From NCBI GenBank assembly GCA_964518565.1, contig CAZFGX010000001.1:734568-798567 (forward strand): 64,000 nt of DNA, written 5' to 3'. The stretch's first letter is position 1, and each line of letters opens with the position of its first letter. Of this stretch, positions 31,089-35,874 are shown one piece after another. The notes beneath the pieces were generated by a model. That model was not told the DNA's origin and searched no databases. It saw only the letters and a program-made list of their open reading frames with translations. This DNA is from an uncultured Gammaproteobacteria bacterium. GTDB taxonomy: Bacteria; Patescibacteriota; Microgenomatia; CAZETR01; Amesbacteraceae. Both the position numbers and the translations under genes were made by a program.

Positions 31089-32267
31089 TCAGCGCAAAAT
31101 CGCCTGCTCAAAGGCTCTTTTATCCGATCGCTCTATCTCACGCTCCCCGATACGTTGTGTTTGTTCATGTCCCATACCAGTCGCCACCACAATATCGCCC
31201 TTTTTAGCCAGTTTCACCGCTCGCAAAATCGCCACATCCCTATCATCTTCTCGTTCAATACGTGCCATGTCTACCCCTCGCGTCATGTCGGCAAAAATCT
31301 TATCCAACGGTTCATCGTATGCATCATCGCTAGTAATTATTACTTTGTCGGCCAATTTAACAGCTATCGATGTCATAACTGGTCGTTTTGCAAAATCCCG
31401 CCTACCTGTACAACCAAACACTAAAATAATCTTGCCTTTCTTTACCTCCATTCTCAAACTACCTAGCAGTTGTTCCAACGCCTGAGGCGTATGAGCAAAA
31501 TCCACAATCGTTCGTATACCTAAAGAGTTTTTTATTTCCTCTCGCCTACCTGGCACCCCCACAAATGTCTTCACAACACGCGAGATCACTTCAGAATCTA
31601 CCCCCAACAACTCCGCCACTTTGGCAGCTGCCGAAATATTGTACCGATTGTAATCTCCTCCTAATGTCTGACTTATCGCTGTTCCCACAAACGGTCCATA
31701 CTCCACAATCTTTGCCTGCAAAATTCTTGTTCGAAACCAATCAAACCACGCATCGTCTTTATTCAAAACTGCAAAACGTACACCAGCAAACAAACGTAAT
31801 TTCGCCGAAGCATATCGCTCCATTGTCTTGTGGTAATCCAAATGTTCGTGTGCCAAATTGGTCCACACACCAATCAAAAAATTACACCCCCATACCCGAT
31901 ATTGATCCAATGCATGAGATGTAGTTTCTACCACGACCACCTCTACGCCTTGATTCAACATAGTAGCCAACACTCGTTGCAAAATAGCTGCCCCTGGAGT
32001 CGTCGCATGTAATACATTTGGCAAAATGACCTCTTTACCCTTGTGCCAAAATTTAGTCTCCACAGTAGTGATCATCCCCACAGACTGCCCTGCCGCTTTT
32101 AACATTTCATAGATCAAAAACGAGGTAGTAGTTTTACCATCAGTACCTGTCACACCAATCGTTTTCAGTTTTTGAGCTGGAAATCTGTAGTACACAACCC
32201 AAAAAACTGCTTCAAAAAAATGCCAAATATTTTTTAATTGTTGCATATTCATATTAATTATACCCAT
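31089..32267 (-). CDS. murE: Mur ligase, MurE-like (UDP-MurNAc-L-Ala-D-Glu: diamino-acid ligase), lacking the usual N-terminal domain
   Basis: IGVTGTDGKTTTSFLIYEML P-loop. VVVETTSHALDQYRV...WTNLAHEHLDYHKTMERYASAKLRLF. Start set at MGIINMNMQQ after the SD GGGAGGTAATA. The track start at 32315 would translate through the 23-bp palindrome. Confidence 0.75.
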   Translation of the reverse strand: MGIINMNMQQLKNIWHFFEAVFWVVYYRFPAQKLKTIGVTGTDGKTTTSFLIYEMLKAAGQSVGMITTVETKFWHKGKEVILPNVLHATTPGAAILQRVLATMLNQGVEVVVVETTSHALDQYRVWGCNFLIGVWTNLAHEHLDYHKTMERYASAKLRLFAGVRFAVLNKDDAWFDWFRTRILQAKIVEYGPFVGTAISQTLGGDYNRYNISAAAKVAELLGVDSEVISRVVKTFVGVPGRREEIKNSLGIRTIVDFAHTPQALEQLLGSLRMEVKKGKIILVFGCTGRRDFAKRPVMTSIAVKLADKVIITSDDAYDEPLDKIFADMTRGVDMARIEREDDRDVAILRAVKLAKKGDIVVATGMGHEQTQRIGEREIERSDKRAFEQAILR

Positions 32268-32679
32268 TATTACCTCCCTGAACGTCCCTCCTTTGTAAGG
32301 AGGGACTAAACGCAATAATTTGTAGTTTTATTTCTTGAACACAATTCTGAAGGTGTATAAAAATCTGTGAGTTGGCAAACCGAAGTATCGTAATACCATA
32401 TTCATTCAATGTCCTCGTTCTATAGACATCAAAATCTTTTTGTGATAAATGAATATCGCCATCTACTTCCAAACCCAATTTAATTTCAGGACAATAAAAA
32501 TCCATAATATAAGTTCCAAAACTATATTGACGGCGAAACTTCACTCCCAATTTTTTTCTACGAATCTCCTCCCACAAAACCTGTTCTGCAGCTGTCGCAT
32601 TGTTACGCAGCTTTCGTCGAGTCTCGGTAAGAAACTGCTTATTTTTTAAATATGTCACAACAATAAATATATCTACCAT
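32254..32679 (-). CDS. DUF559 / Vsr-like (very-short-patch-repair endonuclease fold) protein
   Basis: LTETRRKLRNNATAAEQVLWEEIRRKKLGVKFRRQYSFGTYIMDFYCPEIKLGLEVDGDIH...ILRFANSQI is the DUF559 signature. Start set at MVDIF, 7 nt after the SD AAGGAGG supplied by the upstream palindrome. Confidence 0.6.
   Translation of the reverse strand: MVDIFIVVTYLKNKQFLTETRRKLRNNATAAEQVLWEEIRRKKLGVKFRRQYSFGTYIMDFYCPEIKLGLEVDGDIHLSQKDFDVYRTRTLNEYGITILRFANSQIFIHLQNCVQEIKLQIIAFSPSLQRRDVQGGNNGYN
32284..32306. repeat. Perfect 23-bp palindrome GTCCCTCCTT-TGT-AAGGAGGGAC (left inverted repeat of the DUF559 insertion)
   Basis: 10-bp arms and a 3-nt loop. Exact inverted partner at 32682-32704. Confidence 0.85.
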
Positions 32680-32681
32680 AC

Positions 32682-32704
32682 GTCCCTCCTTACAAAGGAG
32701 GGAC
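32682..32704. repeat. Perfect 23-bp palindrome GTCCCTCCTT-ACA-AAGGAGGGAC (right inverted repeat of the DUF559 insertion)
   Basis: Identical arms to 32284-32306 with the loop reverse-complemented. Contains the SD for the DUF559 gene on the minus strand. Confidence 0.85.
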
Positions 32705-32716
32705 AAATAGGGAGGT

Positions 32717-33751
32717 TTACAAAAACGCCAACCACATACCAAATACAGCCACAATTACTCCCGCCAGCCATGCTCTAGCTACAATTTTCGGCTCTTCCCA
32801 ACCAACGAGTTGCAACCAATGATGAATAGGCGCAATTGGGAAAATACGTTTCTTCATAAATTTTTTCGAAAACAACTGCAACAAACTACTTCCACCTTCC
32901 AACAAAAAAATACTTCCCACCAACAACAAAGCTACAATCTTTCCCGACAACAAGCCCACAACTGCCAATGTAGCTCCAAAAGCCAACCCTCCCATATTTC
33001 CTAACATAATTCTCGCCGGATATACATTGAAATACAAAAACGCCAGCAATGTCCCCATCCAAATCGAAATAAATACCACCAAAACACTATCTAGATTAGC
33101 CACTGATACTATCCAAAACGCCAACAAACAAATAAACAACAGTCCACACGATAATCCATCCAATCCGTCAGTAATATCAAATCCATTGGCAAACGCCACA
33201 ATTAAAAATGCCGCCAGGAAAAAATACCCCACTCCCAAATGCACCATTCCTAAAAACGGAATATGGATAAATGAGATTTGTAATACCCAAGTCAAAATAG
33301 CAGCCACGATAATCGCAATTATCCATTGCACGATTAATTTATGCCGCATTCTCAATCCAAAAAATCCCGTCTTGGCAAAACCCACAATTTTAATTACATC
33401 ATCATAAAATCCTAAAGCCGCATACCCGCCAAAAGTCAACAAAATTACCAACACCTCATGTTCAAATTTATAACCAGGCAAAAAGCTAGGATTCGTATGA
33501 GCAAACAAAAATACAACCAAGGACATGACAATCACCACCAACGCCAACAAAATACCTCCACCAGTAGGCACACCAGCTTTGACCGCGTGCATTTTTCGAA
33601 TATCATAAAACGCCTTTGTTGCGCTTGCCCGTTTTTCTTCCACTTCAGTTTTACGAGTGAATTTCAGCTTATATAGCAAGCCAATAAACGGAATCATCAG
33701 AGCCGAAGTAGTACCAAATGCCAACAGCAAGAGCCCTAAATAGAACCGCAT
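32717..33751 (-). CDS. mraY: Phospho-N-acetylmuramoyl-pentapeptide transferase
   Basis: About 10 TM helices. NVYPARIMLGNMGGLAFGATLA motif of the MraY/WecA family. Lies among Mur ligase genes. Confidence 0.85.
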   Translation of the reverse strand: MRFYLGLLLLAFGTTSALMIPFIGLLYKLKFTRKTEVEEKRASATKAFYDIRKMHAVKAGVPTGGGILLALVVIVMSLVVFLFAHTNPSFLPGYKFEHEVLVILLTFGGYAALGFYDDVIKIVGFAKTGFFGLRMRHKLIVQWIIAIIVAAILTWVLQISFIHIPFLGMVHLGVGYFFLAAFLIVAFANGFDITDGLDGLSCGLLFICLLAFWIVSVANLDSVLVVFISIWMGTLLAFLYFNVYPARIMLGNMGGLAFGATLAVVGLLSGKIVALLLVGSIFLLEGGSSLLQLFSKKFMKKRIFPIAPIHHWLQLVGWEEPKIVARAWLAGVIVAVFGMWLAFL

Positions 33752-35064: not shown

Positions 35065-35874
35065 GTGCAAACACTCACCGCACCCCATCAAAATTTTGAA
35101 ATCACCAAACATATCGACGAATCAGGATTTGAATACTGGACAGCACGAGAATTGATGGAATTATTGGGCTATTCTAAATGGTCCAACTTCAAAAAAATTA
35201 TCGAAAAAGCAATCATATCCTGTAGCAAGTCTGGTCAAAAAATTTCTGATCATTTTCCCGAAACCAGCAAAAAGATAATAATCGCAACAGGTACGTCTAA
35301 ACAAACAAGTCGGGATATCCAGGACTACAAATTGTCCCGTTATGCCTGTTATCTTATAGCCCAAAACGGTGATCCAAACAAAGCCCCAATCGCCGTGGCT
35401 CAGACATATTTTGCCCTTCAAACTCGCCGCCAAGAACTCTTCCAAAGTTTAAACGAAGACGAACGCCGACTATTCATTAGAAATGAAGTCAAAAAACAAA
35501 ATAAAAAACTCTTTAGCACTGCCAAAAAAGCCGGTGTCAAAGACTTTGCCGCCTTCAATAATTTTGGCTATCTTGGTCTCTACAACCAACCCTTAGAAAA
35601 AATTAAATCTTCCAAAAACATAGGTGAAGATGACATTCTGGATCGCGCCGGGTCTACAGAACTAGCAGCCAATCTATTTCGTATCACCCAAGCTGAAGAA
35701 AAAATCAAAAACGAGCATCTACACGGACAAGGAAAGGCCAATATTGCCCATTTTGTTGTCGGTAAACAAGTGCGTAAATCTATTGAAGAAATTGGCGGCA
35801 CCATGCCAGAAAATCTGCCTCCTCAGCCCCATATCGCCAAACTCAAACCCAAATCCCAAAAACTTCTCAAATGA
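35065..35874 (+). CDS. dinD: DNA-damage-inducible protein D (DinD)-family protein with an N-terminal Bro-N/KilA-N-like domain
   Basis: FEYWTARELMELLGY...LSRYACYLIAQNGDPNKAPIAVAQTYFALQTRRQEL...GSTELAANLFRITQ matches my recollection of the DinD family signature. 269 aa. Confidence 0.65.
   Translation: MQTLTAPHQNFEITKHIDESGFEYWTARELMELLGYSKWSNFKKIIEKAIISCSKSGQKISDHFPETSKKIIIATGTSKQTSRDIQDYKLSRYACYLIAQNGDPNKAPIAVAQTYFALQTRRQELFQSLNEDERRLFIRNEVKKQNKKLFSTAKKAGVKDFAAFNNFGYLGLYNQPLEKIKSSKNIGEDDILDRAGSTELAANLFRITQAEEKIKNEHLHGQGKANIAHFVVGKQVRKSIEEIGGTMPENLPPQPHIAKLKPKSQKLLK

Follow-up and report, generated by a model that had tools for sequence, protein, structure and literature searches.

A DUF559 nuclease gene between triplex-motif repeats in a cell-wall operon of an Amesbacteraceae genome: a candidate selfish cassette

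How does a small nuclease gene come to lie, between two perfect palindromes, inside a conserved cell-wall operon? The question is raised by a stretch of 64,000 nucleotides (the window; GenBank assembly GCA_964518565.1, contig CAZFGX010000001.1, positions 734,568 to 798,567) from an uncultured bacterium deposited as a gammaproteobacterium and placed by GTDB in the Amesbacteraceae (Patescibacteriota, Microgenomatia), where a gene of the DUF559 family separates mraY from a Mur ligase gene. We estimate at about one half the probability that this locus is a selfish nuclease cassette with inverted triplex-motif repeats as its ends, analogous to REP/RAYT systems. Across the loci that we compared, repeat modules come and go with the gene, and the gene and two modules form one unit common to different contexts. 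The two modules around one gene are kept alike while differing between lineages, the third block of each module co-varies with the stem, the three-block structure being kept through sequence change, and the association of DUF559 with the modules holds across phyla. We infer from this a functional link between the nuclease and the repeat. The features of the locus are the following, in window coordinates (numbers of the type L001 are our labels for the sequences compared):

32717 to 33751, minus strand: mraY, 344 aa (Pfam Glycos_transf_4, E=1.7e-23), 57-72% identical to its orthologues in eight genomes, by which the bacterium is placed among the Candidatus Amesbacteria-like Microgenomates.
32682 to 32717, plus strand: upstream three-block module, at the 5' gene-proximal end, with 9 perfect triads; inverted-repeat partner of 32272-32306.
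32682 to 32704, minus strand: inner 23-nt palindrome of the upstream module; the 3' arm on the mRNA strand, AAGGAGG at 32691..32685, is the Shine-Dalgarno (SD) sequence of the DUF559 gene.
32254 to 32679, minus strand: DUF559 (Vsr-like PD-(D/E)XK) nuclease gene, 141 aa (Pfam PF04480, E=8e-29).
32271 to 32306, minus strand: downstream three-block module, with 9 perfect triads and the exact palindrome 32284-32306.
32272 to 32279, minus strand: outer purine block AGGGAGGT, which on direct reading of the sequence is the SD of the Mur ligase gene.
31089 to 32267, minus strand: Mur ligase gene (putatively murE in the original prediction), 392 aa (Pfam Mur_ligase_M, E=1.6e-37, and Mur_ligase_C, E=1.2e-24), with the same gene call in L001.

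The order is mraY, DUF559, Mur ligase, all three on the minus strand. The mraY stop codon (TAA, 32719..32717) abuts the cassette, the upstream palindrome begins 12 nt past it, and the last 14 nt of the DUF559 open reading frame (ORF) are shared with the start of the Mur ligase gene. Since the downstream module has the Mur ligase SD as its outer block and the upstream module abuts the mraY stop with its own, the cassette, which spans 447 bp (32271-32717), occupies the intergenic space to within three bases. Its core (32307-32681) has 33.6% GC, versus 40-43% in the neighbouring genes. The called genes include no transposase at the cassette in the window and no recombinase nearby (gene table of L001), and there is no target-site duplication at the junctions of the window, L012, L025, L028 and L030.

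What are the palindromes? Both are exact, as the original prediction had it, and read on the plus strand GTCCCTCCTT-TGT-AAGGAGGGAC at 32284-32306 and GTCCCTCCTT-ACA-AAGGAGGGAC at 32682-32704, sharing the stem GTCCCTCCTT/AAGGAGGGAC and having mutually complementary 3-nt loops. The 23 nt are the core only: the inverted repeat really covers 35 nt (32272-32306 and 32682-32716, 89% complementary), and each 35-nt arm is made of a pyrimidine arm, a loop, a purine arm, a second loop, and a mirror purine block. The upstream module reads GTCCCTCCTT-ACA-AAGGAGGGAC-AAAT-AGGGAGGT(T) on the plus strand, and the downstream one GTCCCTCCTT-ACA-AAGGAGGGAC-GTTC-AGGGAGGT(A) on the mRNA strand. A triplex-motif finder that we built to the ITxF criteria (pyrimidine stem, loop, purine stem, loop, and mirror purine stem, with stems of 6-15 nt, at most one mismatch, and loops of 1-6 nt; PMC4666352) identified exactly two motifs in the window, at 32271-32305 on the minus strand and 32683-32717 on the plus strand. 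Both fall within these limits, having 9 perfect triads each without a mismatch and loops of 3 and 5 nt; five shuffled windows gave 0 motifs. Apart from the two palindromes, the window has no perfect hairpin that is C-rich and pyrimidine-first and has a stem of 8 or more, and a search for the palindrome that allowed up to 3 mismatches found these two matches only in the 64 kb (0 expected from 100 shuffles). Their predicted folding energy is -16.1 kcal/mol as RNA (z of about -4.5 to -5) and -9.6 kcal/mol as DNA.

Modules of this architecture have a history of names: they were called BoxC in E. coli first, then PIT elements, and then TM/TMECO (Hoyne & Maher 2000; Holder et al. 2015, PMC4666352). 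The likeness lies in the succession of C-rich pyrimidine stem, 3-6-nt loop, purine stem, short loop, and mirror purine stem, and in the occurrence of single or inverted-pair modules between genes without a terminator signature. The window differs in that its 64 kb contain two copies only, each of them attached to a gene, and in a sequence that departs from the TMECO consensus CCCTCNCCC-N3-6-GGGNGAGGG-N3-GGGNGAGGG, its stems being TCCCTCCTT / AAGGAGGGA / AGGGAGGT. The window modules have the BoxC/PIT/TM architecture and form a sequence family different from TMECO. The original prediction had named a generic REP or terminator element, in hundreds of copies, as evidence against it, and this identity was rejected: there are two copies only within the 64-kb window, out of a genome of ~1.0 Mb, neither is followed by a T-run, and empty sites in relatives (see below) lack the palindromes. 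No terminator-like site was found between 31000 and 34000, and Rfam gave sub-threshold chance matches only. A scan of viral contigs for the palindrome core yielded one contig, with an unrelated intergenic hairpin and no DUF559; this only viral contig with the TCCCTCCTT-NNN-AAGGAGGGA core (L106:3281-3301, from IMG/VR) has it between a portal-like gene and the next structural gene.

Further details of the earlier description had to be revised. The downstream palindrome does not flank the ORF; it sits inside its 3' tail, where the last ~20 DUF559 codons read through it and encode ..SPSLQRRD... Nor are loops in exact inverse a rule of the family, matched pairs elsewhere being direct in 5 cases, inverted in 4, and otherwise in 10.

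Is the association of gene and module peculiar to this genome? We scanned the JGI metagenomes with a DUF559 alignment and obtained 80 loci from many environments, 77 of them non-redundant. One or more pyrimidine-first perfect C-rich hairpins adjoin DUF559 in 67/80 loci, at a density of 3.3-4.2 per kb within 150 nt of the gene vs 0-0.1 per kb beyond 600 nt, and purine-first hairpins occur nowhere in the 80 loci. Full three-block motifs adjoin the gene in 56 of the 77 loci (3.9 per kb, vs 0.05-0.075 per kb further off), which makes the local enrichment of modules 50-80-fold. Many homologues have C-terminal tails that are the translated repeat (SPSLQRRG, PPKLGGEG) or a stop codon inside the hairpin (..PPS*), and several genomes have clusters of extra modules beside DUF559. 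The upstream and downstream stems of a locus match at 7.0 of 8 positions, vs 5.9 +/- 0.17 when permuted, and 0/2000 permutations came up to this value. In 74% of hairpins the third block fits the stem to which it belongs, vs 46% (maximum 54%) with swapped flanks. Among imperfect stems on the sense strand there is no excess of G.U over A.C mismatches (15 vs 21), a result that a DNA-level constraint would predict and that argues against a purely RNA-level constraint. DUF559 is co-oriented with both neighbours in 20/30 loci and anti-oriented to both in 1/30. Hairpins remote from the gene were inspected as well: the "solo" hairpins of L036:4264-4704 flank a second DUF559 copy, and those of L021:4416-5028 flank a VapBC-like pair in which the end of the toxin is a tail translated from a hairpin (..PPLTPPLKGGAGVV).

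Related cassettes also occur in unrelated contexts, and in such pairs the homology starts and stops at the hairpins. The alignable part of a cassette at the mraY/Mur ligase junction (L012) and one between trmD and a glycosyltransferase gene (L025) is confined to the stretch from TACCACC to GGTGGTA, which mark the outer ends of the modules. The pairs L037/L053, L023/L072, and L055/L066 likewise show homology from hairpin to hairpin in different contexts. In L028 and L030, 453 nt are common at 100% identity between flanks that are unrelated, and this segment sets in 2 nt beyond the outer edge of the upstream hairpin; the cassettes of this family have terminal inverted repeats of 55 nt (93%). These comparisons support the view that cassettes of this kind move elsewhere as hairpin-to-hairpin units.

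At the mraY/Mur ligase junction itself, the history seems to be longer. In three relatives (L004, L005, L010), an ATGA combines the overlapping mraY stop and Mur ligase start, without any hairpin, and these empty sites indicate that both repeats belong to the inserted DNA. Neither neighbour is disrupted by the insertion, as the original prediction had stated. In a database of 5.8 billion proteins, the nearest DUF559 homologues are 44-60% identical, and all of them lie at this same junction, in L008, L012, L018, and L019. Each is bracketed by its own hairpin pair, lineage-specific and alike at both ends (GTTTCCCCTT in L019 and CCCCCTCCTA in L012, for example), and the modules of all four have the three blocks within the limits given above. 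The converse situation, relatives with the same gene and no repeats, had been named as evidence against an insertion and was not encountered. L019 has a compound upstream end (L019:2590-2732), in which the mraY stop is followed by half a module (AATACCCCTTTCCATGTTTCCCCTT), ~95 nt of unrelated sequence, and a complete hairpin; its gene call, an ORF of 156 aa, includes the upstream hairpin.

In total, the junction is occupied in five lineages, an empty ATGA in three, and filled otherwise in three. Two of the latter (L006:5070-6400 and L009:5070-6520) carry a 95-aa + 86-aa toxin-antitoxin-like pair plus further ORFs, and the third (L007:5039-5451) a frameshifted four-helix-bundle ORF of the 23S rRNA intervening-sequence type with its own 18-20-nt inverted repeats. 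The junction looks like a hot spot for small cassettes of different kinds. The DUF559 tree, (window, L018, L019)(L012, L008), agrees with the Mur ligase tree, and in the mraY tree occupied lineages are interspersed with empty ones. These data could fit either an ancient residence followed by several precise losses or repeated site-specific acquisition. The compact insertion of ~420 bp in the original prediction stands as an insertion relative to the ancestral arrangement, and does not stand as a private or recent landing: since four other lineages have their own DUF559 gene with matching modules at the junction, the insertion is old or site-specific, and the cassette of the window is probably an old resident rather than a fresh arrival.

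What kind of protein does the cassette encode? The ORF has 141 aa, one fewer than the 142 first reported, and the N termini of relatives are in better register with an alternative start, the GTG at 32658. Its membership in DUF559 was confirmed by Pfam (100.1 bits vs a cut-off of 20.6, residues 18-120), and the structure PDB 3HRL matches with E=2.7e-16. The catalytic core D..ExD..H aligns with that of 3HRL; among 13 homologues E71, D73, and H77 are invariant and D60 nearly so. The protein consists of this ~120-aa catalytic core only and lacks a distinct DNA-binding domain. Pfam, scanned at E<=0.01, gave only DUF559 and MTES_1575, with no match to the Vsr model (PF03852), and NCBIfam gave only PRK09767 (YcjD type), below its cut-off. 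No cytosine methyltransferase was found among the genes called in ~7 kb upstream and ~3.5 kb downstream (gene table of L001). Given the lack of a Vsr match and of a neighbouring methyltransferase, the protein, a clear member of DUF559, appears not to be a bona fide Vsr. As for defence systems, PADLOC returned only a marginal match (E=1e-3).

How can the operon tolerate such an insertion? The SD of the nuclease gene is supplied by the upstream palindrome, as had been proposed, with GGAGG 5 nt before the ATG at 32679. The upstream hairpin with 4 extra pairs (-20.4 kcal/mol) buries this predicted SD and the AUG. This occlusion would result in a low output of nuclease, plausibly coupled to ribosomes terminating at the mraY stop. 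A similar arrangement is found in IS10 and IS50, in which the ribosome-binding site (RBS) is sequestered in read-through transcripts. At the other end, the downstream palindrome had been placed just upstream of the Mur ligase SD; the position is right, and the SD itself turns out to be the outer block of the module, AGGGAGGT, with GGAGG 5 nt before the ATG at 32267. In the predicted fold this block is unpaired when the local hairpin forms, and the outward purine block would donate an SD to the Mur ligase gene. Transcription is expected to run through the cassette, since there is no terminator in it. The modules could in this way render the insertion tolerable inside the operon. A global RNA fold also predicts a long-range 35-bp stem that loops the gene out of the mRNA, and we considered this stem as an RNase III site or coupling device. 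We do not favour it: in L012 and L025 each end is a self-contained hairpin of ~50 nt, which shows that long-range pairing is not required. Elsewhere in the window (35065-35874), between a murC-like ligase gene and a NUDIX gene, a gene of 269 aa encodes a Bro-N domain, a domain typically found in the DNA-binding proteins of phages and viruses; this gene may have intruded into the cell-wall cluster as well.

The association extends to cultured organisms. In E. coli, a decayed TMECO-like copy contains the stop codon of the DUF559 gene ycjD in its loop and is followed by another two copies, one of which is TMECO no. 9 in Table 1 of Holder 2015. In strain K-12 MC4100 (L105:975-1700, sapF-ycjD-fabI), the last ~70 nt of ycjD and the motif are partly duplicated downstream, and an intact TMECO comes after them. 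The gene is present in 3377/5426 complete E. coli genomes. In a rank-spread sample of 59 complete chromosomes, ycjD-positive strains have 11-27 TMECO-like matches (median 16) and ycjD-negative strains 1-18 (median 5.5; Mann-Whitney p=1.5e-8). The negative strains split into those with 8-18 copies, O157- and O145-type included, and those with 1-3, APEC O1 included; the correlation is suggestive, partial, and confounded by phylogroup. Strains lacking ycjD could not be used as clean empty sites, the region being replaced by a large efflux locus. In N. gonorrhoeae, the homologue of PDB 3HRL has modules on both flanks, and downstream of the gene (L103:1696-2390) three-block motifs occur in pairs, on opposite strands, in every unit of a tandem array whose period is 281 nt. 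In plasmid pAQ6 of Synechococcus PCC 7002, the DUF559 gene is ringed by clusters of C5-N4-G5 hairpins; it lies (L101:15258-30089) within a DUF499 / DUF1156 / helicase operon that resembles a defence system. This operon is also interrupted by PIN, HigB/HigA, XisH/XisI, and VapBC genes, and hairpins of C-runs and G-runs cluster around these.

How could such a cassette work? The modules would be cis-acting ends recognised by the DUF559 nuclease, either by a dimer on the palindromic duplex or structure-specifically on hairpins or triplexes that have been extruded. The breaks that the nuclease introduces could then engage host recombination and repair, leading to the copying or retention of the cassette in a homing-like manner. 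Solo modules and inverted doublets, such as those of E. coli, would be non-autonomous derivatives. It is tempting to extend this to the known repeats and to propose, tentatively, that DUF559 proteins are the missing partner enzymes of BoxC/PIT/TM repeats, TM-DUF559-TM being the autonomous form and solo motifs and inverted doublets the non-autonomous ones. They would then form a second REP/RAYT-like system, with a Vsr-like nuclease that maybe recognises non-B DNA; we regard this wider proposal as possible rather than probable.

Several points weigh against a selfish cassette and should be kept in mind. The binding or cutting of the flanking modules by DUF559 is a step that we infer, and a PD-(D/E)XK nuclease alone is incapable of strand transfer, with no target-site duplication visible. 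At the junction, the identities between DUF559 proteins (45-60%) resemble those of the Mur ligase, and a history of vertical descent with losses accounts for the Amesbacteria data no less well. The cassette is present and virtually identical (one single-nucleotide polymorphism in 3 kb) in 4/4 contigs of the species, so that these contigs offer no presence/absence polymorphism. Similar hairpins also flank the VapBC-like pair of L021 and some ordinary gene ends, and the purine arms, which are SD-like everywhere, could reflect an RNA-level role. L028 is a contig of 1 kb whose right junction falls inside the repeat, where assembly chimerism is possible, and for this reason only the left junction of L028/L030 is safe evidence. 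Finally, E. coli strains without ycjD keep 1-18 TMECO-like copies.

The cassette shares traits with several known systems. REP/RAYT systems (REPtrons, REPINs) also consist of one enzyme gene flanked by matching, lineage-specific palindromic repeats, as seen here, and of repeats dispersed elsewhere as singlets, inverted doublets, and clusters. They differ in their enzyme, an HUH/Y1 (IS200/IS605-like) transposase, whereas that of the cassette is a Vsr-like PD-(D/E)XK protein, and in their GTAG/CGTC-headed repeats, whereas ours are pyrimidine/purine three-block modules with a putative link to the enzyme. Vsr-like/EDxHD homing endonucleases (I-Bth0305I, PMC3239194; "fractured genes," PMC2677866) and the T4 seg/mob genes are likewise small nuclease ORFs wedged between conserved genes, with patchy occupancy of one site among relatives, intact empty alleles, and an RBS occluded by a hairpin; these elements, in contrast, lack terminal inverted repeats and have extra DNA-binding domains. 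The E. coli Vsr belongs to the same PD-(D/E)XK fold superfamily (Steczkiewicz group 58: VSR, DUF559, DUF2726), but the protein of the window has neither a Pfam Vsr match nor a neighbouring cytosine methyltransferase, and the family label "very-short-patch-repair endonuclease" of the sources expresses homology only. Insertion sequences and MITEs resemble the cassette in their terminal inverted repeats (here 35-55 nt) and in a similar autonomous/non-autonomous logic, yet the cassette has no transposase and no target-site duplication, and its cargo is a bare nuclease, which places it outside this class. Concerning the TM repeats, PIT elements lack promoter and terminator activity, and TMECO loci are linked to genome instability, being rearranged more than control sites (PMC4666352). 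The TM-motif publications report no associated gene class or enzyme and do not mention DUF559, ycjD, or endonuclease (PMC4666352), and our full-text literature searches (DUF559, PF04480, COG2852, ycjD, triplex/REP-like repeats) found no description of a pairing between DUF559 and triplex repeats.

Could the locus be explained without mobile repeats? One explanation, which we find rather unlikely, is a free-standing homing endonuclease specific for the mraY/Mur ligase junction, which would cleave empty ATGA alleles and enter them through repair, with the repeats as mere expression or insulation devices. The patchy occupancy of one site with intact empty alleles is what it would produce, DUF559 falls into one group with Vsr and I-Bth0305I, a group I intron endonuclease (PMC3424549), free-standing Vsr-like homing endonucleases have been described (PMC2677866), and the burial of SD and AUG in the upstream hairpin would suit it. 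It does not account for the many unrelated contexts in which related cassettes occur, the hairpins marking the limits of homology, it sits poorly with a protein reduced to the ~120-aa catalytic core, and a purely RNA-level role of the repeats requires neither that flanking copies are kept alike nor that the third block co-varies. Alternatively, the gene could be a long-resident host nuclease for repair or defence, inherited vertically in Amesbacteria and immobile, its hairpins acting as translational attenuator and as mRNA-stability elements. The occupation of the same position in at least five lineages, with congruent DUF559 and Mur ligase trees, speaks for such a resident, as do the conserved catalytic residues, the presence of the gene in all contigs of the species, and the co-orientation with both neighbours in 20/30 loci. 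We nevertheless consider it unlikely in view of the clean empty ATGA sites in closer relatives, the other small cassettes at the same junction in L006, L007, and L009, and the cassette that is 100% identical in two contexts; the extra clusters of modules beside the gene in several genomes, the missing G.U bias among stem mismatches, and the low GC of the core point the same way.

A different possibility is that the nuclease has no biochemical link to the repeats, which would be fragile, recombinogenic sites at which small genes are captured or retained, with DUF559 as a frequent passenger. The greater rearrangement of TMECO loci than of control sites in E. coli (PMC4666352), the partial duplication of the 3' end of ycjD with its motif in K-12, and the hairpins around the VapBC-like pair could all be expected from fragile sites. 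A 50-80-fold enrichment around one protein family across phyla, modules that travel with the gene, and empty sites without any module would not, and we see this possibility as quite improbable. Even the arrangement of the ends suggests an alternative: the 35-nt inverted repeats, with arms 89% complementary, could invert the 375-bp segment between them and switch the expression of the nuclease on and off, and "DUF559 domain-containing protein" is enriched (odds ratio of 14.3) among predicted targets of programmed inversion (PMC9881135). Yet the orientation is the same in all four assemblies, no recombinase gene lies nearby, flanking modules are direct as often as inverted, and only 1/30 loci is anti-oriented to both neighbours, so that an invertible switch is highly improbable. 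A selfish cassette with triplex-motif ends remains the reading that we favour.

The interest of the locus lies mainly in the general association that it exposes. The locus itself would show a selfish cassette residing in an essential cell-wall operon, its own RBS occluded and a new one given to the gene downstream. To our knowledge, DUF559 is a very large family of small nucleases without an assigned function, and the BoxC/PIT/TM repeats, known since the 1990s, have no function, partner protein, or mechanism of spreading, the reported link to genome instability being all that we know of. The association gives these two orphans a concrete hypothesis. If it is true, TM repeats, of which E. coli K-12 has 23 copies and proteobacteria and cyanobacteria have thousands, would gain a partner enzyme, and E. 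coli, with ycjD and TMECO, lends itself to a direct test of the hypothesis.

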